Positions 10,778 through 54,772 are shown, numbered from the stretch's first letter. The stretch is DNA of 64,000 bases from Pseudomonadota bacterium (GCA_043797085.1 JAZDQA010000005.1:128001-192000); one strand, 5' to 3'. Numbers and translations: made by a program. Notes: generated from the sequence alone by a model not told the origin.

Positions 10778-10896
10778 ACAAGGGAACCGCTTTTACATAG
10801 TAAAATGTTTCTGTGAAAGAAAATCCCCCTGATAATACAACACTTCCGATATTCTATACTGCCAATTAAAATTAAACACTGCTATTAATGAATAAA

Positions 10897-10905
10897 TGCT
10901 AAAAT
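10897..10905 (+). promoter_or_regulatory. Extended -10 promoter for slt-export-wzz
   Basis: TGCTAAAAT about 50 nt upstream of the start. Confidence 0.5.
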
Positions 10906-10953
10906 AGCATCAATTTTTTAGATATATTGAAATGAAAAACTTTTTAAAACAGG

Positions 10954-11556
10954 GTGTTGATGATTAAAATACTATTGGGGCTTTTGCTCGCAGTTTTATC
11001 ACTTTTTGCTACCCCTTATGACTCTATTTTCGAGAAAGCGGGTCGTGATTTTGGTATCGAATCCTCATTATTAAAGCGTATAGCGACGATTGAGAGTTCT
11101 CTGAACCCTCGTGCGATCAATCAAAACAAAAATGGTACGGTTGACATCGGGTTGATGCAGATTAATTCGATGCACATTCGAGGTCTTTCCAAGATCGGTG
11201 TCACGCGTGAAGCACTGTTTGATCCGGAGGTCAATGTGTATGTAGCTGCATTGCTACTCAGTTCTCATATACGCAAAAGAGGATATAATCTCCAAGCAAT
11301 CGGGTGTTATCACTCGGCGAATCCGGTGTTTAAAAATCAGTGGTTAAAACGCCTTGCGATGGTAAATGTACCGCAAGGCACCGTAAAGACGTCAAATACT
11401 GCTCAATCGGCAGTGTATGATGATCCGCGCAGCCGTTTTGCTCAACAGCAGTTATCGACCAAGACAGATCAAAAGATTGCGCAAGGGTTGAATCCAAAAC
11501 TCGCGTTGCGTGAAGCCAAAGCCGAAGTAGATCGGTTAATGGGCATAACAAATTAA
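10954..11556 (+). CDS. Lytic transglycosylase (SLT domain) with signal peptide
   Basis: IATIESS catalytic Glu, DIGLMQINS, AIGCYHS. Confidence 0.88.
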   Translation: MLMIKILLGLLLAVLSLFATPYDSIFEKAGRDFGIESSLLKRIATIESSLNPRAINQNKNGTVDIGLMQINSMHIRGLSKIGVTREALFDPEVNVYVAALLLSSHIRKRGYNLQAIGCYHSANPVFKNQWLKRLAMVNVPQGTVKTSNTAQSAVYDDPRSRFAQQQLSTKTDQKIAQGLNPKLALREAKAEVDRLMGITN

Positions 11557-11576
11557 ATTTCAATAAAAGAGAGAAA

Positions 11577-28976: not shown

Positions 28977-30568
28977 TAGTGAGCCTCTGTAGGATGTTGA
29001 GGTTTTTTGAGCAATCGTATTGCTAAATAAGGAGTAAAGATGTAAGCAACAAAGAGCGATGCAATAAGTGCGACAGGGACATTGGCAGGGATTGGTTTCA
29101 TAAACTGACCCATCATCTGACCAACAAATGCCATAGGAACCATGGTCAAAATAATCGCGAGAGTGGCAATGTTGGTAGGTGCTCCAATCTCATCGGTGGC
29201 TTCAACCATCAGCTGATCTGCATCCCTTTCATGTGCGTTGGGGGCGTGAAAATGGCGATGGATATTTTCAATAACGATAATAGCAGCATCGACCAGTAAT
29301 CCAAGACTCAGCAAGAATGCAAAAAGGGTGATACGGTTAATCGTTTGACCTGTCAGATAGGCGATGAAAAGAGTAATCGCCAAAATCGCCGGAACGGTAA
29401 AGGTCACGATAAGCGACTCTCTCCATCCCAAAACAAAGGCAAGTAAGATAGCGATAATCACGATGGAGAGCAAGAGGTGAAAGACCAGCTCATTAACCGC
29501 TTCATTCGCGCGTTCACCGTCATTTCGGGTAATCACGTAGTGAATCCCTTGAGCTTCCATAAGCGATTTGTATTTGGTCAGCTCTGATTTAACGGCATCG
29601 GCGATGATGACGGAATTTGTCCCTTGCAGTTTTGAAACAGTTAGGGTCACTTGATCTTTGAGAGGAGAGAATTTGCCATCGCTTCCTTTGACACTCACAA
29701 GTGCGGATTTGAAGTTTTGTATGTCTTGCCCTGAAGTAACGGTGGCAACATCACGCAAATAGATAGCAGAACCGCCGTATTGTGCAACGATAATGTTTCC
29801 GACATCGTCAACACTTTCAATCGCATTTTTGACCCCGATCATCACAATCTCATTTGCCTCTGTTTTCCCTTTTATTTCAGGAACATTGTACGAGAGAGCT
29901 TGGATGGATTGGACGATTTGTCCCAGTGAGAGATTGTAACCTGAGAGGCGATTAATATCGACTTGGACATTAAACTGATGTTTTTTTGCCCCCTTGATAT
30001 CGGTAACAGCGACGTTAGGAAGACCGTTGATATGGTGCTGTATGAATTTGACACGGTCATAGAGAATAGTAGGATTGATAGCCGGATTATTGGAGTAAAA
30101 AGCGACGGATACGATGGGAATATCGACGTCAATGTCGAGAGGTTTGATAATCGGCTGCATTGCACCTTTGGGGAGAATGCCCATATTTTGCATAATTTTG
30201 TCATATATTTTAAGGTTGGAGTCCTCTTTTGCTTCACCTATAAAAAAAGCGGCATTGATGACGGCAACATTATCCATCGCCATTCCGTGGATGCTTTCAA
30301 TCCCTTTTACTTCTTTGAGTTTACGCTCTAGGGGTTTGACAATAACATTTTCAATCTCTTTTGCCGTCGCACCGGGCATGGCAATGATGACGGTTGATCC
30401 ACTGACCACCATTTGAGGGTTTTCTTCACGCGGCATGAGCATGAGGGCAATGTAGCCGATAATGATGAGGAATATTCCTAAAATCGGGGTAAGCGGATTG
30501 CGTAAAAAACCAAGAGCGAGTTTTCCTGCAGAATCTTTGGGATGATAAGGTGTGCTATGAGACATCAA
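28976..30568 (-). CDS. RND permease, N-terminal half
   Basis: PREENPQ, GLLVDAAIIVIENIHR. Confidence 0.88.
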   Translation of the reverse strand: MMSHSTPYHPKDSAGKLALGFLRNPLTPILGIFLIIIGYIALMLMPREENPQMVVSGSTVIIAMPGATAKEIENVIVKPLERKLKEVKGIESIHGMAMDNVAVINAAFFIGEAKEDSNLKIYDKIMQNMGILPKGAMQPIIKPLDIDVDIPIVSVAFYSNNPAINPTILYDRVKFIQHHINGLPNVAVTDIKGAKKHQFNVQVDINRLSGYNLSLGQIVQSIQALSYNVPEIKGKTEANEIVMIGVKNAIESVDDVGNIIVAQYGGSAIYLRDVATVTSGQDIQNFKSALVSVKGSDGKFSPLKDQVTLTVSKLQGTNSVIIADAVKSELTKYKSLMEAQGIHYVITRNDGERANEAVNELVFHLLLSIVIIAILLAFVLGWRESLIVTFTVPAILAITLFIAYLTGQTINRITLFAFLLSLGLLVDAAIIVIENIHRHFHAPNAHERDADQLMVEATDEIGAPTNIATLAIILTMVPMAFVGQMMGQFMKPIPANVPVALIASLFVAYIFTPYLAIRLLKKPQHPTEAH

Positions 30569-34904: not shown

Positions 34905-34918
34905 ACATTTAATGACTA

Positions 34919-35015
34919 TAATATTCGGGTGAGTCAAAAAAACTCATATCCAGCGAGGATCTAAGCTTAAAATTTAACTAAAGCAAGATAAAGTTTGGAG
35001 AGTATAGAGACTTGA
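34919..35015 (-). pseudogene. Internally deleted relic copy of the 5' part of the lasso ABC-transporter gene
   Basis: 34919-34956 matches 43763-43800 (1 mismatch); 34957-35015 matches 44121-44179 (5 mismatches). Confidence 0.85.
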
Positions 35016-35094
35016 TGTTTGCACGATTCAATTTCAATTTCTGTCAATAATAGTATAATTTTTCCGATTTATTTAAATAATAACAAGGAAGCCA

Positions 35095-35370
35095 ATGTTG
35101 GACGAGAATGCAGCAATTATCCGTAAAAATGAGGTTATATTTTCAGAGATGGATGGAGAACTTGTGATGATGGATCTTGATAAAAACAGCTACTTCGGGT
35201 TGAATGCTGTCGGTAAAGAGATTTGGGAGCTTTTATCCGAAGCCAATACCATCGGCGGATTATGTGCAACATTGATGCAAAAATACAATGTAGATTTACA
35301 ACGCTGCAAGCAGGATGTTACCGCTCATGTTGATAAAATGGTAGAAGTCGGCATCGTTAAGACTATTTAA
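35095..35370 (+). CDS. Lasso peptide RiPP recognition element (B1/PqqD family)
   Basis: EMDGELVMMD...YFGLNAVGKEIWELL...L...Y.V...C..DV PqqD pattern. Confidence 0.92.
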   Translation: MLDENAAIIRKNEVIFSEMDGELVMMDLDKNSYFGLNAVGKEIWELLSEANTIGGLCATLMQKYNVDLQRCKQDVTAHVDKMVEVGIVKTI

Positions 35371-35404
35371 CAGCTTAAATACTTTACAAAGGATTTGACC
35401 ATAT

Positions 35405-37312
35405 ATGGGATCATTTTATTTCATTCAACATTTTATAACTGTTTCGGCAGATTCCATCGCCGATACACTGTTTGAAGCGGTAAAAAAGTATCCTCATGAT
35501 CACGCGGAACGTTTGGTGGCAAATGAGATTGCCATGGGGCGATCGGGTATGCACTGCTATACAAAAACGAACCCCAAAATAGATAATTTTACCCTGAGCG
35601 TCGATGGCAACTGTTTTTATCTGGTGGGGGATATTCGTCTTGATAATCGGTCTGAGTTAATCGAGAGATTAGAATTATCTTCCGATGTATCGTGGTCGAA
35701 TGAAGAGATTATTCTCTGTACGTATCTGCAATTCGGGGAAGATTTTGCCGATTATCTGTTAGGCGATTTTGCATTTGTCCTTCATCATCTCGAAACGGGT
35801 ATGACGTTGGCAGTGAGAGATCATTTGGGGGTTATCCCTCTGTATTATCATGCAAATACCGATTTTATTCTTATCAGTGATACGATCGAGGTGATACTAT
35901 CTCATCCGAGTATCGATCATGGGATAAACGATAACGTAGCGATGGAATTTCTCGTAGCGGGTCATGTTCACAACCAAAGAGAGACTTTTTATACCGTTAT
36001 CCAAAAACTCCCCCGTGCTACTCAAATCCGTTTTAACGATCCAGTACTCATCTATCACACCTACTGGAATAGCGATCATATTCCCCCCTTACACTATGAG
36101 AGTGAGGCGGAGTACATCGATCATCTCCAAGATCTTTTGGAGAGGGTGATTACGGATCGGCTCAAAACTTCCTGCCAGAGTGCGGCCCATCTCAGCGGCG
36201 GTCTTGATTCCTCCGTTATCGCGGTAGCGGCAGGGCGTGAAGTTAAAAAAGGCGGCGGAGTTTTTTACACCTACAACTGGTGTAAACCAGAGATAGGGGA
36301 TGATCCCGATTATCACGAGTGGGCAGATGCTAGATCTATCGCACATGAGGAGGGATTTATCCACTCCGAGATTGATTACACCACCCGATCAGCGATAGGG
36401 GAATTACTCTCTCACAATATCGCGACCTCAGGAACAACGATGTTCGAGTATGAACAGCTGGTATTACCGCTCGCCGCAGAGCAGGGGGTGAAGATCATCT
36501 TCTCCGGTTTCGGCGGAGATGAGATGCTCACGATGCGCTTCAAAAATACCCATATCGATCTGATCCGTAAAGGGAAGTTTTACCGTGTATGGAGAGGATT
36601 AGAAAACGAGATGGCACCGAAGGTAAAACTCAAAACGCTCCGCCTCTTCAAACGGTTCATGCGTCTGCTCTTCAAAAGTATCATCCCTCAGCGGCAAAGG
36701 GAGTGCAAAGTCTGTGAAACACAAATACGCAAATTTTCCAATGCCCTCTCGATCCTCCATCCAGAGTATACGGAGATGCTTAACATAGACGATTTTTTTT
36801 CATCCGCTTTTGCTCAGGTCGATACGATTCATGCAATGCAGCATAGCTATTTAAGTATGGGATACCATCAAGAGCGGATGGAGTGCTGGAATATCATGGG
36901 AAAAAAACAGGGAGTCATCTATGTTTACCCCTATCTCGATAAACGGATCGTCGAATTTGCCCTTTCTCTGCCTGAGAAGTTTTATTTTAAACACGGCGAG
37001 AGCCGATACCTCTATCGGCGCGCGGTGGGTGAGTTTTTACCTCGCGAACTTCTGGATAAACAAAAACCCCCTGAGTCATTTCGGGTTCGACATATATTAG
37101 AACGGATCAATGAAGCGCTCAGTGATCAAAAGATAGAGGAATATGTGAACTTTCGCGAATCACCTTATATCGATACCTCTGCATGGCGTCAAAAATACGA
37201 TGAACTTCAAATACGCATACGGGAGAATCCAGAGGATATCATAGTTCTTTCTGCACTTGCCGCATTTAAAAACAGCGCTTTATTCTTTTTTTTAAGGAAA
37301 AATGACGGATAA
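35405..37312 (+). CDS. Lasso cyclase (asparagine synthetase-like, C protein)
   Basis: RLDNR, GDFAF, RDHLG, HLSGGLDSS, SGFGGDE, YPYLDKR; no N-terminal Cys1; lies between RRE and precursor. Confidence 0.9.
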   Translation: MGSFYFIQHFITVSADSIADTLFEAVKKYPHDHAERLVANEIAMGRSGMHCYTKTNPKIDNFTLSVDGNCFYLVGDIRLDNRSELIERLELSSDVSWSNEEIILCTYLQFGEDFADYLLGDFAFVLHHLETGMTLAVRDHLGVIPLYYHANTDFILISDTIEVILSHPSIDHGINDNVAMEFLVAGHVHNQRETFYTVIQKLPRATQIRFNDPVLIYHTYWNSDHIPPLHYESEAEYIDHLQDLLERVITDRLKTSCQSAAHLSGGLDSSVIAVAAGREVKKGGGVFYTYNWCKPEIGDDPDYHEWADARSIAHEEGFIHSEIDYTTRSAIGELLSHNIATSGTTMFEYEQLVLPLAAEQGVKIIFSGFGGDEMLTMRFKNTHIDLIRKGKFYRVWRGLENEMAPKVKLKTLRLFKRFMRLLFKSIIPQRQRECKVCETQIRKFSNALSILHPEYTEMLNIDDFFSSAFAQVDTIHAMQHSYLSMGYHQERMECWNIMGKKQGVIYVYPYLDKRIVEFALSLPEKFYFKHGESRYLYRRAVGEFLPRELLDKQKPPESFRVRHILERINEALSDQKIEEYVNFRESPYIDTSAWRQKYDELQIRIRENPEDIIVLSALAAFKNSALFFFLRKNDG

Positions 37313-37340
37313 TAGTAGCAATTAATCATAAAGGATCCCT

Positions 37341-37481
37341 TTGGAAACCCCATACAGCAGTGTTCAAGAGGCAAAGTTAGAGTGGAGCCAGCCGAAACTG
37401 GTCGAATTGGATGTCAATCAAACGGAAAGTGCTTCGCTTTCTTCGCCGGTTGAAGGTCCGTGGAGTCATCCATTTAGCTGA
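37341..37481 (+). CDS. Lasso peptide precursor (46 aa): METPYSSVQEAKLEWSQPKLVELDVNQTE|SASLSSPVEGPWSHPFS
   Basis: Not in the ORF track; TTG start with AAGGA RBS; WxxPxL leader motif, Thr at -2, Ser1 and Glu9, C-terminal Ser. Confidence 0.88.
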   Translation: METPYSSVQEAKLEWSQPKLVELDVNQTESASLSSPVEGPWSHPFS

Positions 37482-37508
37482 TAAAAAAAAGAGTATCCAA
37501 ATTTAACC

Positions 37509-37534
37509 ATCACCTCTCGATAAGCAGAGGTGAT
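37509..37534. terminator. Hairpin between the convergent lasso operons
   Basis: ATCACCTCT-CGATAAGC-AGAGGTGAT perfect 9-bp stem. Confidence 0.7.
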
Positions 37535-37580
37535 CCAATCTATTTGCTCAGGTATGTGAATATCCTTATTCTCTCATCGC

Positions 37581-40457
37581 CTATTCATACCAAATATGAA
37601 CAGCTCCTTTTGTTAGATGCGTTATTTTTTGAGTAGTACCGTTTGGCCAGGTTACTTCCATCATTTCAGGGGAATCGTTTTCTTTGATACCAAAATGAAG
37701 ACGATAGGGCTGTGCACTGTCCCAGCTACCGCCTGAGCGAATTTCTTGCACTTGTTTACCTTGTTTGGTATATAAAATGATGCGGCTACCGACTCCGTAA
37801 TAGTTACCAGATTTACTTCGCAGTTCTACGGAAATACTATCACCTCCATGATGATTTTGATAATACTTGGATGACTCGAATACTGTATTCACCACGATGT
37901 CACCATCACCATCGTTGTCAAAATCGGCGATCATGACTCCACGGCTATCTGAGACTAGATCCAAACCAAGGAGTTTTGTTTTATTGAAAAAATGAATCTT
38001 CTGGGATTTTGACACATTTGTTTTATTGATTAGCATTGCATTCGGTATTCGAGTTAAACCTAACTCTGCTCCAGTAGTGATGTAAAGATCCAATAAGCCG
38101 TTATTGTCGATGTCATAGGGGTATGCAGCCCAAGACCATCCTGTAAAGATAGCATCATTGTCAACTAAAACATCATGATAATTTCCTTGAGTGTCACGTT
38201 TTAGCAAGATGTTTCTATTGACCCGTTTAGGGAAACGCTCGGCATGGTATTTGTTGGCGTTTGGATTAATATTTGAAATATTATCCGGCATCAAACGTCT
38301 TTTGCAGACTTGTTGTTCTCCGATATTTTGGATTTTATCACATTCACGAGGATCATTTAAATCCATACCTCTATGTTTAGCCTGTGTTTCATAACAAATG
38401 TCTCGTACATAGTTGTTTGAGATTAAATCGCAGTTGAAATGTCCTGTGTGCAGGTTATTTCGTATTAATTGAAACTCACGACTGATGATGTCTTTACGGA
38501 TATCGGGTTGACTGAGTACTTCTTTGAATCTATTGTTTTGGTATTGTACGCTATTTGAAATACAGTTTTCCCAGAGCTCAAATGTTCCGTCGTTGTCGAA
38601 ATCACCGCTTAAATAACTCATACTTGAATTACTATTGTAAGGAATTTTATTTTTATCGATGAGACGGAATCGATGTTCTTCATCTCCTATCAGTGTTAAA
38701 GTGGGTTGTAGATCATTGGCCAACATAAAATCAACATGACCGTTTTGATCCAAATCGCTAAATAAAGCAGTCATCCCTGCATACTCATTTTGGGTATCGG
38801 GCATATAGTGTATCGATTCTTCTCTCCATCCCTCTTTGCTGCTGATCCATAGCTGATCGTTCATTCCATTACTTTTTAAAAAACCGGATGTCCGTCGTTT
38901 GTCGCTGTAAAAATCTCGATCATAAGCAATATAAATATCTAAAATTTTATCCTTATTGAGATCATATAAAGCGATTCCACCCGTCACGCTGCGTTTATAC
39001 CCGTAAAATTGAAAAGAAGGTTTGAATTGTTTTTTAATAGAATCAAAGAGGTAGATTTGATGTTTTTGAGGCTTGTTCACATATTGATTTTTTAGCAGTA
39101 TCATATCCAGATAAGTATCATTATTGAGATCAGCCAGCGCTATATACTCGATGTTAGCAGGGATATTTTTTCCAAACAAATCGAAGGTAGCATCGATAAA
39201 ACCGTGATTCTTTGTTCCGAGGTAGCATCGTAAAGGGACTCCTGTTTTTGCCATAACAATATCCAGTATTCCGTCGTGATTGATGTCCCCCGCCGCTAAT
39301 GGACTGTGATGAAGAAATTCCCATCCAAGTTCTTTGCGTGTTATGTGTGGCAAATAGGATTTGAAAGCAGTATCACGTGTCTCAAATGTTGGATGCGGAT
39401 TCGTTTCCTTTTGTAAAGGCATTGTGATTATGTGGGAATGATTCCATTGAGTTTTGTAGAGGCTTTTATTTTCGTCACTCCAAATATTTATCCCGGATGG
39501 CACAGGAATTTCATTTTGGTAACGTGTATGTTCGTGTTGAGATGATCTGTGATTAGAACTGGATTCAAGATTGCGTATATAATTGTAGTTCGAAAAATAA
39601 GTCACTACGATAACCATTAGTTCGAATATAAGTATGATGACAATAGTTTTATTTAAATATCGACTTGATTCTAAATTACGGAGCCATGGCACAGTTAATG
39701 TCAATAAAAAGAGGGATAAAAACATATAAATTTCACGTGCACCGAAAAAAAGCTCAAGAATAAGAGGTAAAATAGCGATTGATATCGCAAAGAAAATTTG
39801 TGTTGCATAGCGATCAGGAGAGGTTCGGGGATCGGTAAGCATAAAAAACATAAAGAGCAAAAAACTCCCTGAAATCAGTAAATGAAAAATTTCATAGATA
39901 TTATGCGTGATGAATAAGTAGGTTACTAGAGCATACGTTAGGATAAAAATGACAGGGATAAGAACTCTGTGCACTTTAATGGTGATATAAATTCCAAGAG
40001 ACATCATAATGAGGCCAAGCCACCATAAGTCACCCCATTGTTCTGGGGTTGTATAAGTTTGATAAGGGAAAAACATTAATCCTATGACAACAGCGACATT
40101 GGATGGATTAAGGAAGTGTTTACTTCGGATTATTAGCCAGTGTTTTTGCAGAAGTGCTACGAGTATAACGATAAAATAAATATAAAGATCACTGGTACGA
40201 AGCATAAATGATATGCCTAGCGCAGTGCTGACGGCAGAAAAAGAGAAAAAAGTGAGTGCTTTATTTTTAATATACAAAAGTGTATGCTCGACCAAGATAG
40301 CAAAAGTGACGATGGCACCGATCTCGATCCACCGGATCGGGAGATTTAAAACTATTTTTCCAATCAGCATTAGTAAAATGAGATTAAACATTTGGAGACG
40401 TTGTATTGTATTGGTCTTAGAGTTGATGTTTGGTTTCAAATGTAAAATATTATTCAT
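37581..40457 (-). CDS. Membrane RnfD/UnbU-like domain fused to FG-GAP/VCBS repeats and an ASPIC/UnbV domain (CRTAC1-like)
   Basis: HFLNPSN and FMLTDPRTSP in the TM part; several DxNxDGxxD repeats; GSRI...HFG...V.WP.G C-terminus. Confidence 0.8.
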   Translation of the reverse strand: MNNILHLKPNINSKTNTIQRLQMFNLILLMLIGKIVLNLPIRWIEIGAIVTFAILVEHTLLYIKNKALTFFSFSAVSTALGISFMLRTSDLYIYFIVILVALLQKHWLIIRSKHFLNPSNVAVVIGLMFFPYQTYTTPEQWGDLWWLGLIMMSLGIYITIKVHRVLIPVIFILTYALVTYLFITHNIYEIFHLLISGSFLLFMFFMLTDPRTSPDRYATQIFFAISIAILPLILELFFGAREIYMFLSLFLLTLTVPWLRNLESSRYLNKTIVIILIFELMVIVVTYFSNYNYIRNLESSSNHRSSQHEHTRYQNEIPVPSGINIWSDENKSLYKTQWNHSHIITMPLQKETNPHPTFETRDTAFKSYLPHITRKELGWEFLHHSPLAAGDINHDGILDIVMAKTGVPLRCYLGTKNHGFIDATFDLFGKNIPANIEYIALADLNNDTYLDMILLKNQYVNKPQKHQIYLFDSIKKQFKPSFQFYGYKRSVTGGIALYDLNKDKILDIYIAYDRDFYSDKRRTSGFLKSNGMNDQLWISSKEGWREESIHYMPDTQNEYAGMTALFSDLDQNGHVDFMLANDLQPTLTLIGDEEHRFRLIDKNKIPYNSNSSMSYLSGDFDNDGTFELWENCISNSVQYQNNRFKEVLSQPDIRKDIISREFQLIRNNLHTGHFNCDLISNNYVRDICYETQAKHRGMDLNDPRECDKIQNIGEQQVCKRRLMPDNISNINPNANKYHAERFPKRVNRNILLKRDTQGNYHDVLVDNDAIFTGWSWAAYPYDIDNNGLLDLYITTGAELGLTRIPNAMLINKTNVSKSQKIHFFNKTKLLGLDLVSDSRGVMIADFDNDGDGDIVVNTVFESSKYYQNHHGGDSISVELRSKSGNYYGVGSRIILYTKQGKQVQEIRSGGSWDSAQPYRLHFGIKENDSPEMMEVTWPNGTTQKITHLTKGAVHIWYE

Positions 40458-41290
40458 CAGTATCCAAATTTCCCCATTATCTCTCGATGAGCAGAGGTGA
40501 TTTTGTCTATTTGCTCCGAGGTGAGAATATCCTTATATCCTCCCGTTTTACCTGATCTAAAAAAGCTCTTCGATTTCGTCGGTTTTTCACGGAAACTTTT
40601 TGCCTCTTCTTGTTTTTTCAGCTCCTCAAAACTCGAAAATCGGACTGCTTTAGTCAGACGATCGGGATCGATCTCAAATCCCATAAACTCCAGCATTTCT
40701 TGAAACGTCTCATAGGGGTGTGATAGCATATCCTCATACCGCATCACATGAACCCTAAGCGGTGAATCGATCCAGCTGCGCACATGGGACGACCAATCCA
40801 ACAATCTCTGAGGGAGCTGATCGGCGAGCGTTTTTTCCGAAAGGGCGATGGTAAATGACTCCTTATTGATGTTTGCGTAAGTTTTAGAAATATCTTTCCC
40901 CCCGTGTGCGGCGTAGGAGACTGCTACGTCCATAGGATTACGCAGGATATAAATCACCCCCTTGGTCACCAATGCAGGAAAGAGCGGTTCTCCAACACTA
41001 TTGAGAGTATAAGCATCATGAACTTTGATGTAATAATCACGTGTTGCATGAGCCATCAGCTCCTCATACAAGCGAGGCTGAAAGAGCCGTATTTGCTCCT
41101 CGCTCATGTCCGAGGAGGGGAGACACAGCAGATCATCAAATGTCTCGCGGTTACTCGCGATACCATCGGTTTGCAGAGCATTGATGTCAGCTGGTTCATC
41201 GCTGTTTACGAGATAGTTTGTGATGAGAGCACGGGTCCAGGTATTACCGCTTTTGGGATACGAAGCGAGCCAGTAGATACCGTGACTCAT
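40457..41290 (-). CDS. PAPS-dependent sulfotransferase (Sulfotransfer_1)
   Basis: ASYPKSGNTW 5'-PSB, RNPMDVAVS 3'-PB, RYED, FFRSGKTGG. Confidence 0.95.
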   Translation of the reverse strand: MSHGIYWLASYPKSGNTWTRALITNYLVNSDEPADINALQTDGIASNRETFDDLLCLPSSDMSEEQIRLFQPRLYEELMAHATRDYYIKVHDAYTLNSVGEPLFPALVTKGVIYILRNPMDVAVSYAAHGGKDISKTYANINKESFTIALSEKTLADQLPQRLLDWSSHVRSWIDSPLRVHVMRYEDMLSHPYETFQEMLEFMGFEIDPDRLTKAVRFSSFEELKKQEEAKSFREKPTKSKSFFRSGKTGGYKDILTSEQIDKITSAHREIMGKFGY

Positions 41291-42192
41291 CGCATATCTT
41301 TTTCGATGATGTCGGCGAGTTCACGAAGGGAGTTTTTCTCTTTGGGGCGGATAACACGTTTGACGATGTGATCCTGCGCTAGTTTGGAAGAGAGGATAAA
41401 ATGCTCTTTTCGTATCGGCAGATGCTCCAGAAACTTTTTACGATAGGTGTTGTTTTTAAGGACGGAGAATTTTTCTATTCCGTTGATCTCTTCGAGTACA
41501 ATCTCCTCTTTGGTATGAGTAGAGAGGATATACATGGAGTGTAAAGCAAGAGGTGTATCATGAAAATGCTCAAAGGTCGGAACAGCAAATTTATCAAGTT
41601 CTGGACGAATTTGGCGTAATCCCTCGGTATTTTGATCCAGCATTACAGCACTTTGGTGCCACAGTTTGGTTTGGGGATAGGAGGGGAGAGCGGTAATTTT
41701 TTGATTCTCTCCATCCCAATACAATGCGATCGTATCATCGGAGAGTTTTTTGTAGCCTCTACGGATAAACTCCTGAGAAAGGGTACTTTTTCCCGCACCC
41801 GAAACTCCGGCAAACAGTACAGCCCCCTTGGGGGTTGCAATCGCGCTGGCATGGAGTGTGAGATACCCCCTTTGCTGCAACAACGCTCCGATAGCTGAGC
41901 CAAATAAAAATAATCGTATCTCATCTTCGGTGCAATCATGCTCCTTTTCGATAATAATCTCATTACCGTTACGTACTAAAAAAGCTCCAATCGTCGGGAG
42001 TCTCATGATAAGTTCAGCCTCATTTGCCTCAAAAGTAGGGCCGTGATTAAGAGTATTTTCCAACTTTTTGGGTACATCGCCATACCGGATATGGACCGAG
42101 GAGAGAGCCTTGGCTTCGTCTGCTGTGATGGGAACGAGTTCAGGTGCGATAAATGGTGTCTCGAAATGGAGACCAAAAGCTTTATAATCCAA
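41287..42192 (-). CDS. HPr-kinase-like lasso peptide kinase
   Basis: LHAS, GVSGAGKST, LSDD motifs, as in PadeK/ThcoK-type kinases. Confidence 0.88.
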   Translation of the reverse strand: MDYKAFGLHFETPFIAPELVPITADEAKALSSVHIRYGDVPKKLENTLNHGPTFEANEAELIMRLPTIGAFLVRNGNEIIIEKEHDCTEDEIRLFLFGSAIGALLQQRGYLTLHASAIATPKGAVLFAGVSGAGKSTLSQEFIRRGYKKLSDDTIALYWDGENQKITALPSYPQTKLWHQSAVMLDQNTEGLRQIRPELDKFAVPTFEHFHDTPLALHSMYILSTHTKEEIVLEEINGIEKFSVLKNNTYRKKFLEHLPIRKEHFILSSKLAQDHIVKRVIRPKEKNSLRELADIIEKDMR

Positions 42193-42345
42193 GAAATTCC
42201 TTAAAAATAATCTATATTCAGAGTATCCTATATATTAAAAAAAAGTATACCTGCTTTAGAGCTAAAGTACCTTGAGCCGAAGTAACAAATTGGATTAAAT
42301 AGAGCAGATTGTTCCATTTTGCTTTATATGCCTGGTGCTGCTATC

Positions 42346-44184
42346 TCAAACATGGATATTTTCTATCTGCTGTTTCCATGATTGGGCATATTTGCCATCA
42401 AGAGACATCAATGATTCATGAGTGCCGGACTCTATCACTTTTCCCTGATCCATCAGGTGGATAATATCGGCTTTCATGGCAGTAGTGAAGCGGTGTGTGA
42501 TAATGACCGCTGTTTTATTTTTGGCAAGCTCCATAAAGCGCTGAAGCCAGTCATTTTCCGCCCATGAATCCATCGCACTGGTCGGCTCATCGAGGATAAT
42601 AAAAGGGGCCTTACGGAAAAAAGCCCGTGAAAGGGCGATCCTCTGCCACTCTCCAGTACTGAGATCTTCCCCACCGAACTGTCTGCCCAATCGGGTGGCA
42701 TACCCCTGTTTCAGCCGTGATATCGGCCCATCAGATCCCCCTTGGTAGGCTGCATTATCGATCTCCTCCTGAAGAGGTACACGGCTCATATCCCCAAGGG
42801 CGATGTTTTGTGCGGCGGTCGCTTCGTATTTGACCGGTTCTTGAAAGAGGACAGTTGTGTACCGGTGCAGCATATCGGGAGAGAACTCTCTAAAATCGGA
42901 ACCGTCCAAGGTTATCTTCCCTTCTTGCGGATCGTAAAAACGGTTGAGAAGTTTGATGAGGGTACTTTTACCCGCACCGTTTGTACCCACAATCGCTACC
43001 GTTTTCCCAGCAGGGATGGTCAATGAAAAATTGCTAAGAGCCCATCGTGCTGTATGGGGATAGCGGAAGGATACATTCTCGAACCGGATTTCATCGGTTA
43101 GAAATTGGGGAGATGCAAGGGTTTGGTTGGATTCAAGAAGTTTGGGGCGGATATCGAAAAAATCAAACAAATTTTCCAAAAATGTAATATTTTTGTACAC
43201 TTCCCCGATATCGCGCAGCAGTGTTTTCATCATTTTTTGACCCTGATTGAATGCCTGATAAAACAGGACCAAGTCCCCCATTGAAGCCTTACCTTCTAAT
43301 GCCTGTATAAGCATCCACCCAACTGCCACTGCTACAACGGCAAGTCCGAGTATTACAACAAAAATCTCAGAGATCACTTCATCGCGTATTAATTTGATAT
43401 GTTCAGTGCGCAGTTTAGTTTTGAGCAGAGTGAATTGATTTTTGAAATACTCTCCTAGCTTAAAAAGGCGAATCTCGGCCGCAGTCGATTGGTGAGTGAT
43501 AATCCAATCATAGTAATTGGTTTTTCGTACTGTTGCAGTATTTTTGGTACGCCAGTGATGGAAACGGATCGTGTGGCGGATGACTAGGAGCAAAGCTGGA
43601 AATGTTCCCAGTAGCAGAAGTAACGGTAGCCACCATGCATAGGGTAACAGCAGTATCAACATTCCAAGGAGTGTAATGCCCGAACGGGTAAGATTACCGA
43701 TATTTTCCAACAGGGCTAAGGGACGACTCATCGCATCGATACGGGCACGATGGAGCTTGTCGTAATATTCGGGCGAGTCAAAAAAACTCATATCCAGCGA
43801 AAGGGCCTTGGAGTGTATTTGATCGTAAATGGAGTCACTGATGAGTTCGCTCTGAACCGTCCGTATCCATTTGGTGATCGTATTCAGAAGCTCATTGAGT
43901 ACCATCAAAAATACCATCAGCGTAATGGTAGGCATAACGGGCTGCATACTCTCCCAACTCTTGTATTCACCCATCGCCGCAGTAATGCCGTCGATCAGAG
44001 GTCCCATCAGGTAAACGATTGCTGCGGGTATGATCCCCTGCAGTATCAGCAGTACCATCCAAAAAAACGACCACCATCCCGACGCGTTCCAAATTAGTCT
44101 AGCGGTACGAGAGAGATAGGGGATCTGAGCTGAAAATTTAACTAAAGCAAGATGAAGTTTGGAGAGTGTAGACACTTGAGACAT
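42346..44184 (-). CDS. ABC exporter (TM + ATPase), lasso D protein
   Basis: GTNGAGKS, LSTGEWQR, ILDEPTSAMD. Confidence 0.92.
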   Translation of the reverse strand: MSQVSTLSKLHLALVKFSAQIPYLSRTARLIWNASGWWSFFWMVLLILQGIIPAAIVYLMGPLIDGITAAMGEYKSWESMQPVMPTITLMVFLMVLNELLNTITKWIRTVQSELISDSIYDQIHSKALSLDMSFFDSPEYYDKLHRARIDAMSRPLALLENIGNLTRSGITLLGMLILLLPYAWWLPLLLLLGTFPALLLVIRHTIRFHHWRTKNTATVRKTNYYDWIITHQSTAAEIRLFKLGEYFKNQFTLLKTKLRTEHIKLIRDEVISEIFVVILGLAVVAVAVGWMLIQALEGKASMGDLVLFYQAFNQGQKMMKTLLRDIGEVYKNITFLENLFDFFDIRPKLLESNQTLASPQFLTDEIRFENVSFRYPHTARWALSNFSLTIPAGKTVAIVGTNGAGKSTLIKLLNRFYDPQEGKITLDGSDFREFSPDMLHRYTTVLFQEPVKYEATAAQNIALGDMSRVPLQEEIDNAAYQGGSDGPISRLKQGYATRLGRQFGGEDLSTGEWQRIALSRAFFRKAPFIILDEPTSAMDSWAENDWLQRFMELAKNKTAVIITHRFTTAMKADIIHLMDQGKVIESGTHESLMSLDGKYAQSWKQQIENIHV

Positions 44185-44678
44185 TAGTGAGCCTCATTGA
44201 TCGAGGAAAATACGGAGACAACGGTAAAATTTCGGTGCCCTGAAGCTCCGCAGAGGATTTTAGAACCGTTTCGCAACCATGCATGAGCTTTTAGACCATT
44301 ACCCCCTTCTTCACGCGCTACACCCAGATAAAGATTCCATCCCAGTCCCCTGCGACGAAGCATCCGCTGCGCCGCAATCGCTTGAGGAAGGCAGACACTC
44401 TCCCATGGGGTATAACGCACGGCCCGTGCAATCGCATGTGCTATTTTGAGCGCTTTAGCATCAGACTCTGCTTCTTTCAATGGATCGTTCTTGTCGATCA
44501 ATGTTCCCAAAGTCGGGGCAATACGTTTAAAGGGGATAAACGCTACTGAAAGTCGTGCAACTCCCAGAAAGTATGCCGCTTCGAAAAAAAGGATTTTATC
44601 GGCGGCGGGAAGACGGTGCCATGCGGTGAGTTTGTGTTTTAGGACTACAAACGGATTTTTACTCATCACCATCTCCAC
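44184..44678 (-). CDS. Lasso leader peptidase (B2, transglutaminase-like)
   Basis: PWESVCLPQAIA catalytic Cys, LGV, AHAW His; likely start 44666. Confidence 0.93.
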   Translation of the reverse strand: MEMVMSKNPFVVLKHKLTAWHRLPAADKILFFEAAYFLGVARLSVAFIPFKRIAPTLGTLIDKNDPLKEAESDAKALKIAHAIARAVRYTPWESVCLPQAIAAQRMLRRRGLGWNLYLGVAREEGGNGLKAHAWLRNGSKILCGASGHRNFTVVSVFSSINEAH

Positions 44679-44916
44679 TTTTAAAGAAGAGATAGTATCA
44701 AGAATTTCCTGAGTACATCATTGCAGAAAGATTCTGTTTGGGGCTTGCGTATTAGAATTCTCAATAAAGTTTTAAATCTATGATAAAATTTTAGGAGCAA
44801 CGGGATGTTGACGCAGAATTCTGAAGAAGTATTTGGCAAACTCCAAGTGGTGTGATTAATCGAAATATCATGAATATAAAAAACGGTCTGCGTAGATGTA
44901 AAAGGGAAGAATAGCA

Positions 44917-46149
44917 ATGATAAAACACGACGAGAATTATATTCAGCAAGCATTGTTGACCTTTTTAAGAGATGATATTGCGCAAAATGCATTGCCCAAT
45001 TTGCTAATGATAGAGTGGGAAGAGCTCATTGTATTGGCAAAAAAACAGCATGTTGCTGAATATCTTTATTATCATCTAAAACAAAACCATCTTTTAGAGT
45101 TAATTCCTAATGAGCAAAAAAATATGATGGCTGAATCATTTAAGAAACGAACATTTCGAAATCTTGCACTTATGGCGGAATTTCATAGGGTTGTGAATGT
45201 ATTGCATCAACATCATATCCCCGTAATTGCTCTTAAAGGGCTGCATCTGGTAGAATCGGTTTACCCTCATATCGCGACACGATTTTTTAGGGATTTGGAT
45301 GTGCTAGTTCCGATACCTCATGGGAGAGAAGCGTATAACTGTGTTTTAAACATGGGATATAAGAGTGATAAAAAACTCACTGATTTGGATTTTTCCTTTC
45401 AATATCACAACCACTTTGATCAGCTTATCCATACAAAAAACAAAACCGTGCTGGAAATTCATGGCTATATTTCTAAAGATTTTAAAAATGATGCACTGCT
45501 ATTATGGGAAAATGCGATTGCAAGCACCAATAAAGCACACCATCATTTAACCTTGGACTTGGAAGATTTATTGATACATTTGTGTGTTCACATCAGTCAT
45601 GGAGATCTGTTTAAAATTGACTTGAGACACTATCTTGATATCTATTTAGTCCTCCAAAAATATAAAGAAGCGATCCATTGGGATAAAGTAATACAGCGGT
45701 CGCAAGACAGGGGGTGCTTTGGTGGTGTGGCTATCGTGCTTACTATCGTTGAACAACTCTTTCACATCGATATTTCGGAAACATTCACACACAATATTCA
45801 AAATAATGAGAAGGCAAAACAAACAATAAAATATGCCCTAGAATTTTTATGGATGTATGATAGATCCTCAAAAGGGTATAAGGAGTACAAAACAAAAGTA
45901 CCATTGCCGCATCACAATGGTTCTTTCTTTAAAAAAGGATTGATGAGACTTTTTCTGAATAAAGAGGAGCTTGCATTTAACTATTCCTTGGACAAAAACT
46001 CATTCAAAGTTTATTTTTATTATCCTGTCCGCTTTATAGATTTAGTACGAAAACATTCTAAAACAACACTTCAAAATCAGATTGTTCAAAAAAACAAGAG
46101 TTTTATCGAAAAAACAAAATACGTCAATAATTATCTTTTGAACGTTTAG
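44917..46149 (+). CDS. Nucleotidyltransferase family protein (NTP_transf_5)
   Basis: IALKG...YP....R...DLDVLV, LEIH, HLCVH, YLDI. Confidence 0.88.
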   Translation: MIKHDENYIQQALLTFLRDDIAQNALPNLLMIEWEELIVLAKKQHVAEYLYYHLKQNHLLELIPNEQKNMMAESFKKRTFRNLALMAEFHRVVNVLHQHHIPVIALKGLHLVESVYPHIATRFFRDLDVLVPIPHGREAYNCVLNMGYKSDKKLTDLDFSFQYHNHFDQLIHTKNKTVLEIHGYISKDFKNDALLLWENAIASTNKAHHHLTLDLEDLLIHLCVHISHGDLFKIDLRHYLDIYLVLQKYKEAIHWDKVIQRSQDRGCFGGVAIVLTIVEQLFHIDISETFTHNIQNNEKAKQTIKYALEFLWMYDRSSKGYKEYKTKVPLPHHNGSFFKKGLMRLFLNKEELAFNYSLDKNSFKVYFYYPVRFIDLVRKHSKTTLQNQIVQKNKSFIEKTKYVNNYLLNV

Positions 46150-46203
46150 ATATCAGTATTTTTATAGGTATAATGTAAACATTAATGGAAGAAGGATTTA
46201 TGT

Positions 46204-47112
46204 GTGAATGAACAACGGTTAACTCACCTTAAAACTCTCGAGGCAGAATCGATTCATATACTGCGTGAAGTGGTTGCGGAGTTTGAAAATCCGGCGATGC
46301 TCTACAGTGTTGGAAAAGACTCCTCTGTCATGCTGCATCTGGCTCAAAAAGCTTTCTACCCCGCTTCCCCTCCATTTCCCTTAGTCCACGTTGATACGAT
46401 GTGGAAATTTAAAGAGATGATTGAGTTTCGAGACAGTCGAACGAAAGAGCTGGGGATGGAATTGATTGTTTATACCAATCCAAAAGGTATTAAGATGAAT
46501 ATTAGCCCTTTTGAACACGGCTCCGCTGTACATACCGATATCATGAAAACCGAAGGGCTCAAGCAAATGCTCGATCTCTACAAATTTGATGCACTGCTCG
46601 GTGGAGCACGACGGGATGAAGAGAAAAGTCGGGCAAAGGAGCGTATCTACTCTTTTCGAGATGAATTTCACCGTTGGGATCCGAAAAATCAACGTCCGGA
46701 GTTATGGAATATTTACAATAGCCGTCACCATAAAGGTGAAAGTATCCGTGTTTTTCCTCTTTCGAACTGGACGGAGCTTGATATTTGGCAATATATTTAT
46801 CTGGAACAAATAGCGATTCCAGAACTCTATTTTGCCAAAGAACGTGACGTTGTCGAATACGGCGGAACAAAAATTATGGTAGATGATGAGCGCATGCCTG
46901 AGAGCTTGCGAAAATCGGCTAAAAAAGAGAAAGTTCGTTTTCGAACGCTTGGATGTTATCCGCTGACAGGTGCTGTAGAATCGACTGCGACAACCCTGAG
47001 TGAAATTATTCAGGAGATGCTGCTTGCCAAAACCTCTGAACGTCAAGGGCGAGTGATCGATAATGATTCTTCCGGATCGATGGAGAAAAAAAAGATCGAA
47101 GGATATTTCTGA
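46204..47112 (+). CDS. cysD: Sulfate adenylyltransferase subunit 2
   Basis: [29 protein letters not shown]. Confidence 0.96.
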
Positions 47113-48557
47113 TGGCTCATCAATCAGAACTGATTTCCCAAAACATCGAGCAATATCTCAAAGAGCATGAGAATAAGGAGCTGCTGCGCTTTATTACGTG
47201 CGGCAGTGTCGATGACGGAAAAAGCACCCTAATCGGGCGTCTTTTATACGACTCAAAAATGATTTTTGAAGATCAGCTTGCCGCGATTCAAAAAGAGAGT
47301 AAAAAAATGGGAACGCAAGGGGATGATATTGATCTTGCATTACTGGTTGACGGCTTGCAAAGCGAACGTGAACAGGGAATCACCATCGATGTTGCCTATC
47401 GCTATTTTTCGACTGACAAACGTAAATTTATCATTGCCGATACTCCCGGACATGAACAATACACCCGTAATATGGCAACAGGTGCTTCGACGGCAGATTT
47501 GGCAATTATTCTTATTGATGCACGCTACGGTGTACAAACACAGACCAAACGCCATACCTATATCGTCAATTTGATGGGGATTAAACATATCATTGTGGCT
47601 ATTAATAAAATGGATTTGATCGGTTTTTCAGAAGAACGTTTTGAGGAGATTCAGCAAGAATATCAAGTTTTTGCACAGGAACTTGGGATTCAAAATCCTC
47701 TATTTATTCCGATTTCGGCACTAATGGGTGATAACGTCGTTAATCCAAGCGATTTAATGCCATGGTATCAGCGAGATCCTTTAATGAAGATACTCGATAC
47801 TATCAATATCGGATATGATGCCAACCAATATCCAACCATGTTTCGATTTCCTGTGCAATACGTGAACCGTCCAAATCTTAATTTCCGTGGCTTTTCTGGA
47901 TCGATCGCTTCTGGAAGTGTCAAAGTAGGCGATGAGATTACGGTACTTCCCTCAGGAAAAACCACACGGATTAAATCAATCATACCCCCAGCCATAGCTA
48001 ATGGAACACAACAATTAATGACGATTGATGAAGCTTATGCTCCAATGGCAATCACGCTGACAACCGAAGAAGAAATTGATATCAGCCGAGGGGATATGAT
48101 CGTTCATTCCAGCCATCTTCCGAGAATTTCTAACAGTCTTAAAGTAATGATAGTTTGGATGGATGAAGAACCAATGATTCCGGAGCAAAGTTATTACATC
48201 AAAACCTCTACCTCATTAATAAACGGAAGTTTTAAGCATATTAATTACAAAGTCAATGTAAATACCTATGAAAAAGTATATGTAGAGAAATTGCAGCTGA
48301 ATGACATTGCTTCATGTAAAATGGTATTGCATCGCCCAATAGTTGCAGAACCGTACAGTCTTAACCGCTTTACGGGTAGATTTATCATCATAGACCGTAT
48401 GACTAACAATACAGTGGGAGCTGGGATGATCGTGGACGTGAGTCGCCGAGAGCATGAAAAGATTATCGAAACCAGTAGAGAATATATAAAAGAGGAAATC
48501 GAATTGAACGCTTATGTCCGTAAACATTTTCCAGAGTGGGGATGCAAAGCAATCTGA
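47112..48557 (+). CDS. cysN: Sulfate adenylyltransferase subunit 1 (GTPase)
   Basis: [19 protein letters not shown]. Confidence 0.96.
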
Positions 48558-49282
48558 TGTACAGAGAAACAAATATTCGTACTATCGCTAAAGGATTTAG
48601 CTGGCGCTTTTTTGCAACTGCGACAACTGTCCTTATTGTGTATCTTTTTTTTGGTCGTCTCGATCTCGCGATTGCTGCGGGTATTTTAGAAACGTTTTCA
48701 AAAGTGTTACTCTACTATGGCCATGAGAAATTATGGCAACGTGTCCGATGGGGGAAAAAGAAAATTGAGCCGTTTAATTTATGGTTTACCGGTTTGCCAC
48801 TGTCAGGTAAAACTACTATTGCTGATTTGGTATATGAAAAGCTCAAAAAATACGATATCCCTATGGAGAGAATCGATAGTAAGGATATCCGTGAACTGAT
48901 ACCAGATATCGGGTATACGCGTGAAGATCGGAACCGTCACATGCATCGTCTTGGACATCTTATAAAGACCTTGCAAAATAATTCCATTTCGACAGTGGCC
49001 TCTTTTGTATCTCCTTATCGTGAATCTCGTAAAGCAATACGTGAAATGGTCAAAAATAATGTTATTGTGTACGTCAAAGCCGATATTGAAAGCTGCAAGC
49101 AGCGAGATTATAAAGGAGTATATATTAAAGCACTCAAGGGAGAACTTCAAAATTTTTCAGGTATCAATGATGTGTATGATGAACCACAGCATGCTGAGAT
49201 TACGATAGATTCTGATGAAATGAGTGCAAATGATGCATCCGATAAAATTGTTCAATACATTAAAAAGAGATATATCAAATGA
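48557..49282 (+). CDS. DUF2061 membrane domain fused to an adenylyl-sulfate kinase-like domain
   Basis: KGFSWR...YYGHEKLW..V.WG followed by WFTGLPLSGKTT, SFVSPY, RDYKGVY; ATG overlaps the cysN stop. Confidence 0.8.
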   Translation: MYRETNIRTIAKGFSWRFFATATTVLIVYLFFGRLDLAIAAGILETFSKVLLYYGHEKLWQRVRWGKKKIEPFNLWFTGLPLSGKTTIADLVYEKLKKYDIPMERIDSKDIRELIPDIGYTREDRNRHMHRLGHLIKTLQNNSISTVASFVSPYRESRKAIREMVKNNVIVYVKADIESCKQRDYKGVYIKALKGELQNFSGINDVYDEPQHAEITIDSDEMSANDASDKIVQYIKKRYIK

Positions 49283-49878
49283 TGAGTTCACATGTAGTAT
49301 GGCATGATCACAGTGTATCCAAAGCACAACGTTCATTACAAAAAGACCAAAAACCTTGCATATTATGGTTCACAGGTCTCAGTGGTTCTGGAAAATCGAC
49401 TATAGCTAATGCATTAGATGCCAGATTTGTTGAGATGGGCAAACATACTTATTTACTCGATGGTGACAATATCCGTCATGGACTAAATTGTGATTTAGGC
49501 TTTAGTGATAATGATCGTATTGAAAATATTCGGCGCATTGGAGAGGTAAGTAAACTTTTTGTTAATGCGGGATTGATCGTGATAACTACCTTCATCTCAC
49601 CGTTTCAAGCCGACAGGAAGATGGTTCGTGAATTGGTAGACGAGAGCGAGTTCATCGAAATATTTATAGATACAACACTGGATATATGCGAATTACGAGA
49701 CACAAAAGGGCTATATAAAAGAGCGAGAGTCGGTGAGATTGTAAATTTTACCGGTATTGATTCCCCTTATGAGCCACCAAATAATCCTGAAATCCATATA
49801 AAAACAGAGGTAAGTGATATTACAGAAGCGGTTGAGAAAATTCTTGCTTATCTTGTATTAAATGGGTGGAACCTCTAA
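49279..49878 (+). CDS. cysC: Adenylyl-sulfate (APS) kinase
   Basis: WFTGLSGSGKST, LDGDNIR, FISPF, FTGIDSPYE. Confidence 0.96.
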   Translation: MMSSHVVWHDHSVSKAQRSLQKDQKPCILWFTGLSGSGKSTIANALDARFVEMGKHTYLLDGDNIRHGLNCDLGFSDNDRIENIRRIGEVSKLFVNAGLIVITTFISPFQADRKMVRELVDESEFIEIFIDTTLDICELRDTKGLYKRARVGEIVNFTGIDSPYEPPNNPEIHIKTEVSDITEAVEKILAYLVLNGWNL

Positions 49879-50067
49879 GAACCACTTTTTCCGTAGTATA
49901 AATTTCTTTGATTCACAATTCATATATCAAACTGTAGAAAGACTTTGTATATTTGGCTGCAATCATTGATTGGCACAGCAAAAAAATGTGGGGATAATAG
50001 TATTATTATTTAGAAATTATATTCTTTAATAGAAATCTTAGGGTAATATAGTTTTATTCTTAATATT

Positions 50068-54697: not shown

Positions 54698-54772
54698 TGA
54701 TTAACATCCAATTAACATATATTTATCGAAGTGCGACTACAATTGCACCAATCTTATCACGACAGGTCCCGA

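Follow-up and report, generated by a model that had tools for sequence, protein, structure and literature searches.

Lasso peptide clusters of the paeninodin type encode kinases (PadeK and ThcoK, and the proteobacterial SyanK) that phosphorylate the C-terminal Ser of the linear precursor, and in pseudomycoidin, from Bacillus pseudomycoides, a nucleotidyltransferase extends the phosphate of the C-terminal Ser by one or two hexoses (PMC8498205). Kinase-type lasso clusters were noted to contain sulfotransferase and nucleotidyltransferase genes as early as 2014-2016 (PMC4289311, PMC8498205): a 2014 survey recorded that some lasso clusters hold an HPr kinase and a sulfotransferase, whose roles it described as unclear (PMC4289311), and a passage of a 2021 review lists a putative sulfotransferase gene, with no function given there, and a nucleotidyltransferase gene as flanking some Firmicutes clusters (PMC8498205). 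Here we describe an island of this kind at positions 35095-49878 of a 64,000-nucleotide window, which corresponds to bases 128001-192000 of contig 5 of a bacterial assembly (2.40 Mb, 14 contigs, 95.9% complete). In this island, lasso genes, a kinase gene and a sulfotransferase gene stand next to an operon for the synthesis of the sulfate donor 3'-phosphoadenosine 5'-phosphosulfate (PAPS). On balance, we think that it probably encodes a lasso peptide of the paeninodin/pseudomycoidin type together with the means to sulfate it, including its own PAPS supply. The association of these genes is already known; what is new is the capture of the PAPS operon of the genus into a lasso island, and the predicted complex between the kinase and the sulfotransferase.

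Like the paeninodin-type clusters, the island has split B1 and B2 genes, a cyclase, an ATP-binding cassette (ABC) exporter, an HprK-like kinase and a precursor whose last residue is Ser. Unlike them, its kinase is translationally coupled to a sulfotransferase, to which it is predicted to bind, and a PAPS operon adjoins. As far as gene content goes, a kinase and a nucleotidyltransferase gene are shared with the pseudomycoidin cluster, whereas the nucleotidyltransferase gene of the island leads into cysD and a sulfotransferase is also present. The nearest functional analogue is the RaxX/RaxST system of Xanthomonas oryzae, where a ribosomal peptide is sulfated by a PAPS-dependent enzyme before export and the donor is supplied by raxP and raxQ (ATP sulfurylase and adenosine 5'-phosphosulfate (APS) kinase; PMC6637879). 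RaxST modifies a Tyr in a linear peptide whose leader is of the double-glycine type, and its core PAPS genes lie elsewhere in the genome (PMC6637879), whereas the island combines a lasso peptide, a core without Tyr, PAPS genes within the island and an enzyme of the Sulfotransfer_1 family. In the open literature we found neither an account of a sulfated lasso peptide nor a test of the sulfotransferase of these clusters, and the literature matches listed for lasso peptides together with Campylobacterota names held nothing beyond a single passing mention.

Kinase, sulfotransferase and lasso genes

The island comprises 14 intact genes, as judged from open reading frames (ORFs) and from Pfam and NCBIfam matches, and they are arranged in three units (Table 1). 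The first unit, on the plus strand, carries B1, the cyclase gene C and the precursor gene. The second, on the minus strand and convergent with the first at a hairpin that is likely to be a two-way terminator, carries B2, the ABC exporter, the kinase, the sulfotransferase and a 958-aa protein; the stop and start codons of the last three genes overlap in series. The third, on the plus strand and divergent from B2, is headed by the nucleotidyltransferase gene and continues, after a gap of 54 nt, into cysD, cysN, a DUF2061-APS kinase fusion and cysC. All genes named in the initial annotation (RiPP recognition element (RRE), cyclase, precursor, B2, exporter, kinase, NTP_transf_5, Sulfotransfer_1, cysD-cysN and two APS kinases) were found intact where they had been placed.

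The sulfotransferase looks active from its conserved residues. The motif PKSGNTW (residues 12-18), H91 and RNPxDxxxS (117-125) are invariant in an alignment of 37 sequences, and K13, H91 and S125 represent the three residue types named as essential in PAPS sulfotransferases, namely a Lys/Arg in the 5'-phosphosulfate-binding motif, a catalytic His/Glu and an invariant Ser in the 3'-phosphate-binding motif (PMC6637879). Because these PAPS-binding and catalytic residues are invariant, a purely structural role of the protein is disfavoured. In family searches the island gene was the sole match in the genome to both Sulfotransfer_1 and Sulfotransfer_3, and three polysaccharide-type sulfotransferases from genus-mates, used as queries, gave no match with E below 0.1. 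Among solved structures, the nearest by sequence are TEG12 (E 1.9e-14), Teg14 (3.7e-12) and StaL (2.3e-7); only two stretches align. These three enzymes perform PAPS-dependent tailoring of peptide antibiotics, in which they modify the phenolic hydroxyls of non-ribosomal aglycones, and are not known to have a kinase partner.

The kinase, whose stop codon overlaps the start of the sulfotransferase gene, carries a P-loop (GVSGAGKST, residues 129-137) and a DD pair at 152-153; G134, K135 and S136 are invariant among 46 homologues, and a sequence search against solved structures gave weak HprK matches only (E ~1e-3). When the two proteins were modelled together, the complex scored 0.87, as compared with 0.00 for the best of three controls. 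A mark of 0.87 is reached by 116 of 157 solved complexes and by 2 of 215 mismatched pairs, which are rough counts, as our own alignments were used. Three runs agreed in at least 98% of contacts, with a partner pLDDT (predicted local confidence) of at least 87, and the predicted interface includes residues 130-132 in the P-loop of the kinase and segments 48-77 and 151-157 of the sulfotransferase. The model supports the notion that the two proteins bind each other, and from it we infer, as a further step, that their active sites may face each other. In two other genomes the kinase and the sulfotransferase form a single ORF: one of 801 aa in a gammaproteobacterial metagenome-assembled genome (MAG; L061:8708-11113), the other of 671 aa in a Binatia MAG (L078:8900-10915). 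The predicted complex and these natural fusions lead to a concrete hypothesis, in which both enzymes would act jointly on the C-terminus of the peptide.

The precursor translates as ...KLEWSQPKLVELDVNQTE, followed by the predicted core SASLSSPVEGPWSHPFS; its leader ends in ...VNQTE, with Thr at position -2, and its core has Glu at position 9, a C-terminus ...HPFS and no Tyr. The rule for lasso precursors, given in part in PMC10368454, calls for Thr at the penultimate position of the leader and for Asp or Glu at core positions 7-9, and the island precursor agrees with it on both points; a ring between Ser1 and Glu9 is predicted for the core. Its match to the paeninodin-family model is weak (E 1.3e-3; 18.4 bits, below the cut-off of 27), and the precursors of related clusters have the same leader pattern and a C-terminal Ser. 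Other lasso proteins also match the specific models imperfectly: B1 scores slightly below the cut-off of lasso_PqqD_Bac (76.2 against 80 bits), and the top NCBIfam model for C is lasso isopeptide cyclase, at 231.9 bits and below the subfamily cut-off of 525. The exporter has close homologues in related lasso loci, with E values down to 4e-190.

Table 1. Genes and one further feature of the island; positions are counted from the first base of the window and cut-offs are those of the models
Feature	Position	Strand	Evidence
B1, RRE/PqqD-like leader-binding chaperone, 91 aa	35095..35370	+	PqqD 65.9 bits (cut-off 23.4)
C, Asn-synthase-like lasso cyclase, 635 aa	35405..37312	+	Asn_synthase 112 bits (cut-off 21) and GATase_7
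A, precursor, 46 aa	37341..37481	+	TTG start, AAAGGA 7 nt upstream
Hairpin between the convergent operons	37509..37534		9-pair stem and T-run; consensus match only
958-aa membrane protein	37581..40457	-	Polytopic N-terminus of ~290 aa, FG-GAP/VCBS repeats, ASPIC/UnbV C-terminus; last gene of the minus-strand operon
PAPS-type sulfotransferase, 277 aa	40457..41290	-	Sulfotransfer_1 99.5 bits (cut-off 22)
HprK-like peptide kinase, 301 aa	41287..42192	-	HprK_rel_B 35 bits, HprK_rel_A 32.8 bits (cut-offs 200)
D, ABC exporter, 612 aa	42346..44184	-	ABC_membrane and ABC_tran
B2, leader peptidase, 164 aa	44184..44678	-	lasso_biosyn_B2 (NF033537) 95.1 bits (cut-off 33); Transglut_core3 86.2 bits
NTP_transf_5 nucleotidyltransferase, 410 aa	44917..46149	+	159.5 bits (cut-off 31.2)
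CysD, ATP sulfurylase small subunit, second genome copy	46204..47112	+	NF009214 522.4 bits (cut-off 413)
CysN, ATP sulfurylase GTPase subunit, second genome copy	47112..48557	+	NF003478 677.1 bits (cut-off 590)
DUF2061 membrane segment and divergent APS kinase, 248 aa	48536..49282	+	APS_kinase 142.7 bits, DUF2061; TIGR00455 157.2 bits (cut-off 138.7)
CysC, canonical APS kinase, 199 aa	49279..49878	+	NF003013 312.1 bits (cut-off 163)

PAPS genes and sulfate assimilation

All three activities for PAPS synthesis (CysD, CysN and CysC) are encoded in the island, each with a score above the model cut-off. Since CysDN with CysC is the classical enterobacterial route of assimilation, the cys genes might feed assimilatory sulfate reduction via PAPS, and the CysH protein encoded on contig 7 of this genome passes the broader NCBI model named 'phosphoadenylyl-sulfate reductase'. 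We nevertheless regard this explanation as extremely unlikely. The operon on contig 7 (cysK, cysH, cysD, cysN, sulfite reductase, a cysteine-desulfurase-like gene and cobA) includes cysDN genes of its own and contains no APS kinase gene. Its CysH also passes the model for thioredoxin-dependent APS reductases (TIGR02055, 256.1 bits, cut-off 235.3), so that the name of a model is indecisive by itself, and it carries CCHVRKIAPL, SIGCAPCT and ECGLH, cysteine motifs that we take to be a mark of iron-sulfur APS reductases and to be absent from PAPS reductases. Assimilation through the contig-7 operon would therefore proceed via APS and would need no PAPS.

The only two APS_kinase matches in this genome are both in the island, and the CysN proteins of the island and of contig 7 are 57% identical. 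Because, in addition, the contig-7 operon has no APS kinase, the cysDN genes and the two APS kinase genes of the island can be taken as a separate PAPS-making module. Of the 60 genus-mates searched, 44 show no APS kinase, and the remaining 16 have one. The initial annotation had pointed out that no PAPS reductase or sulfite reductase lies alongside the lasso genes, and indeed there is none in the window; the matches in the genome to these families fall on contigs 4 and 7 and on the part of contig 5 not covered by the window. Computation lends good support to its view that the PAPS is for sulfation and not for assimilation, given the separate contig-7 operon and the fact that the only APS kinases and the only detected sulfotransferase of the genome are in the island. 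Of the two island kinases, the DUF2061 fusion is 33% identical to the adjacent CysC. The tandem pair is kept in at least seven genus-mates.

Related loci and the proposed pathway

A search for related loci in one-per-species genomes gave 612 pattern matches, 599 of which were confirmed, and the best 80 of these 599 loci, which carry the closest relatives of the sulfotransferase, were screened with the island proteins. The kinase was found in 56 of the 80, which makes the kinase-sulfotransferase pair a common one, and in 54 of these 56 the kinase and sulfotransferase genes are direct neighbours on one strand. Nucleotidyltransferase homologues occur in 18 of the 80. No kinase, B1, C, B2 or nucleotidyltransferase gene was found in 22 loci, mostly from Alphaproteobacteria and at 35-40% identity, and these probably represent another subfamily. 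The remaining 58 loci, which have a kinase, a lasso core gene or both, are spread over Verrucomicrobia, Cyanobacteria, Chloroflexi, Acidobacteria, Gemmatimonadetes, Bacteroidetes, Desulfobacterota, Spirochaetes, Actinobacteria, Negativicutes and Proteobacteria. Five of them have an APS kinase gene at a distance of up to 10 kb, and in three of these five, from Gemmatimonadaceae (L036), Rectinemataceae (L038) and Negativicutes (L068), cysD and a CysN-CysC fusion are located inside the cluster. This independent recurrence of cysD/CysNC is the strongest comparative argument that clusters of this kind use PAPS.

The kinase-sulfotransferase pair might instead act on a sugar, a lipid or a small molecule, or the sulfotransferase might be a non-catalytic partner of the kinase. 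In favour of this, six of the 56 kinase-bearing loci have no B1, C or B2 within reach, and the C-terminal Ser, the sole invariant acceptor of the candidate precursors, is already the target of the kinase. However, at least one of B1, C and B2 accompanies the kinase in the other 50 loci, no variation is seen in the PAPS-binding and catalytic residues, and the enzymes with the nearest solved structures sulfate peptide antibiotics; moreover, the predicted complex and the fusions tie the sulfotransferase to a kinase whose relatives act on lasso precursors. We consider a non-peptide substrate or a non-catalytic role improbable.

Precursor candidates with a W-x-x-P leader, 46 in number, were collected from 31 of the 58 loci. 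The C-terminal residue is Ser in 37 of the 46, as compared with 9.4% of background small ORFs, and among the candidates this Ser appears to be the only invariant hydroxyl. O-sulfation of Tyr as in RaxX was considered and rejected, as the island core has no Tyr and Tyr is present in only 30 of the 46 candidate cores. In one alphaproteobacterial MAG (L057:6204-20731) one kinase-sulfotransferase lasso cluster is surrounded by at least nine precursor-like genes; their leaders are nearly identical, and their cores differ but all have Ser at the end.

In the pathway that we infer, which includes peptide sulfation itself, its site and the order of the steps, B1 would bind the 46-aa precursor via its leader, and a kinase-sulfotransferase complex would tailor the linear peptide. 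The kinase would phosphorylate the C-terminal Ser, as its relatives do. The sulfotransferase would move sulfate from PAPS, most likely to the C-terminal Ser or to a group built on it, because this is the only hydroxyl that appears to be invariant, or, failing that, to a different Ser in the core. The phosphate may in turn receive a further group from the nucleotidyltransferase. B2 would cut the leader off, C would close the ring between Ser1 and Glu9, and the ABC exporter would secrete the product, which would be the multiply modified lasso peptide proposed in the initial annotation. PAPS would be made locally by the second cysDN and the two APS kinases, presumably recruited from the polysaccharide-sulfation pool of the genus, and the cys genes are apparently co-transcribed with the nucleotidyltransferase gene.

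A bolder version, which we put forward tentatively and regard as rather doubtful, is that the kinase and the sulfotransferase constitute one two-headed enzyme that makes an undescribed C-terminal modification of a ribosomal peptide, a Ser either O-sulfated or phospho-sulfated, the latter a mixed anhydride as in APS. If this were true, sulfated lasso peptides would be made in many phyla, and the island would be a portable unit with its own sulfate-donor supply. The island is well suited to experiment, being complete, with a clear precursor, its own PAPS supply within 15 kb and matches in an environmental RNA library, and its groundwater host is non-pathogenic.

Insertion site, genus-mates and neighbouring genes

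The malic enzyme gene that flanks the island has its nearest named homologues in Sulfuricurvum sp. (77-83% identity) and then in Sulfurimonas (~72%). This bears out the earlier assignment to Campylobacterota and suggests that the host, a groundwater bacterium, is Sulfuricurvum-like. The closest genus-mate is G129, whose malic enzyme is 96% identical. Its genes for an outer-membrane efflux protein, efp, DJ-1, an Lcl_C-domain protein, malic enzyme and a DEAD helicase are contiguous, and the Lcl_C-domain and malic enzyme genes are ~25 nt apart, with no island there. When the junctions were aligned, the window sequence matched G129 as far as ...GACTATAAT and diverged beyond. Because the flanking genes of G129 are contiguous and the site is empty of both the lasso and the cys genes, the region ~34905-50067 appears to be one 15.2-kb accessory insertion relative to G129 that holds both sets of genes, although two successive insertions may be an alternative to a single event. 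The site is variable, since two other genus-mates (G135 and G131) hold a different cargo of 7.5 kb between the Lcl_C-domain and malic enzyme genes. The G135 cargo (L139:10117-17662) encodes a HEAT-repeat protein, a GT2 glycosyltransferase, a 774-aa protein without family, a polysaccharide deacetylase and a tetratricopeptide-repeat (TPR) protein, and looks like an exopolysaccharide module. No direct repeats were seen at either end of the island when both junctions were aligned to the empty site, and no integrase family match was found in Pfam or NCBIfam among island ORFs of at least 120 aa. Delimiting the island by GC content was rejected (0.35-0.47, as against 0.28-0.48 in the whole window), as was an enrichment of promoter-like sites in the island (34 found and 42.9 expected from shuffled sequence).

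The cys module has orthologues in genus-mates, in the same gene order and at 75-86% identity for CysD, 64-73% for CysN, 76-84% for the first kinase and 64-69% for the second. Among ten such loci, seven have the full order cysD-cysN-cysC-cysC, two are without the first kinase copy and one is truncated at the end of a contig. The operon is followed by cysQ in each of the six annotated loci, whereas in the island cysQ is absent and the neighbours are lasso rather than polysaccharide genes. Polysaccharide sulfation appears to be the usual home of the module in the genus, and the island illustrates how a biosynthetic cluster may take over a primary-metabolism module from the polysaccharide genes of its host genus. 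The sixth annotated locus (G169) is located just upstream of rpsA and serA, beside uncharacterised genes; in that genome the cys-cysQ operon occupies the position upstream of rpsA that is held, in the genome studied here, by a surface-polysaccharide locus.

Several observations weigh against peptide sulfation by the island. None of the ten cys loci fetched from genus-mates has a lasso gene within ~8 kb, and five of the six annotated ones lie among polysaccharide genes (glycosyltransferases, DegT aminotransferases, NeuB, capsule and dTDP-rhamnose genes). In G171, the sole genus-mate with related lasso clusters, the cys operon is ~45 kb away from them, and in only 5 of the 58 kinase- or lasso-bearing loci described above is there an APS kinase within 10 kb. 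A chance meeting of two cargoes at a variable site could explain the adjacency of lasso and cys genes. A query with the PAP phosphatase gene cysQ of a genus-mate found nothing in this genome, which is 95.9% complete and in which the single Inositol_P match, on contig 11, is weak (40.6 bits). Sulfotransfer_2, Stf0 and Sulfotransfer_4 had no match in this genome, but they had none in the control genomes either, so that the result is uninformative. The groundwater RNA-library contigs considered below may derive from carried-over DNA. Finally, we know of no precedent in bacteria for O-sulfation of Ser or Thr by enzymes of the Sulfotransfer_1 type.

Taken further, the chance meeting would mean that two unrelated cargoes share one variable site and that the cys operon is a displaced polysaccharide-sulfation module which serves, or once served, another acceptor. 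This is consistent with the ten genus-mates that carry the operon without lasso genes, with the polysaccharide context of five of the six annotated loci and the other sulfotransferases present in two of these (G133 and G048), with the other cargo at the site in G135 and G131, with the polysaccharide locus at 1-15268 of the window and with a promoter-like site in the gap between the nucleotidyltransferase gene and cysD. On the other hand, neither the family search nor the polysaccharide queries from genus-mates revealed another sulfotransferase in the genome, the site in G129 is empty of both parts, cysD begins 54 nt after a lasso-type nucleotidyltransferase gene on the same strand, and cysD and CysNC genes occur inside lasso clusters of three other phyla. 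We therefore judge two unrelated cargoes to be unlikely and prefer a PAPS supply that belongs to the lasso cluster. The expectation that cysDNC travels with the lasso island holds in part: the single insertion relative to G129 and the linkage in three other phyla agree with it, whereas the ten genus-mates whose operon lacks lasso genes and the distance in G171 do not.

Of 200 further genomes in the family, only G171 has a close sulfotransferase homologue (58% identity, plus a paralogue at 38%); seven further genomes have weak matches only. G171 has two lasso clusters side by side (L025:8209-17925 and L026:312-3554), each with a kinase-like gene directly before the sulfotransferase gene. One of them contains an ATP-grasp gene; the kinase-like gene before its sulfotransferase gene (L025:11571-12494) is undetected by any Pfam family, and a separate, recognisable kinase is present as well.

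Such rarity, one other genome of 200, and the failure to find cysQ would fit an island that is silent or decaying, with no modified peptide made in nature. However, all 14 genes are open with intact motifs, and a groundwater RNA library holds contigs for five segments of the island. Four of these segments are matched with 0 differences, namely 35066-36485 (B1 and C), 37320-38258 (precursor), 41655-42271 (kinase) and 44796-45811 (nucleotidyltransferase), and one, 46755-47455 (cysD/N), with 1 difference. We hold a silent island to be very unlikely. The flanks of the island were matched by the same library, whose contigs give neither strand nor level and whose sample may be the source of the assembly itself, so that the matches are a weak hint that the island is expressed. 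The segments 38308-38908, 43116-44317 and 48525-49125 had no contigs, which is uninformative as to absence, and three other library searches gave short pieces 90-95% alike or nothing, and are uninformative as to habitat or absence.

The 958-aa gene, which overlaps the stop codon of the sulfotransferase gene and is translationally coupled to it, was not on the list of the initial annotation. The N-terminus of its product has a partial RnfD/NqrB-like match, and a homologue stands beside lasso genes in one of the 80 related loci (L073, an Acidobacteria genome); a role in immunity, as a receptor or in something unrelated is possible. A 103-aa ORF at 44681-44992 (minus strand) has no family match and overlaps the start of the nucleotidyltransferase gene, and it is probably not a gene.

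Outside the island, the surface-polysaccharide locus at 1-15268 lies directly upstream of rpsA and serA and has a GC content of 0.28-0.36 in its first 10 kb. It holds genes for Wzy-like, GT4, Bac_transf, Wza-like exporter and Wzz proteins and four ORFs without family, and no cys genes. An AcrB-type pump of the resistance-nodulation-division (RND) family is present as two minus-strand ORFs (27267-28976 and 28976-30568; 569 and 530 aa), which align with the C-terminal and the N-terminal half, respectively, of the profile for this family and reflect either a frameshift or a true split. At 54731-57883 on the plus strand, a 1050-aa fusion joins ResB-like and CcsA-like domains of cytochrome c biogenesis, an arrangement typical of Campylobacterota.

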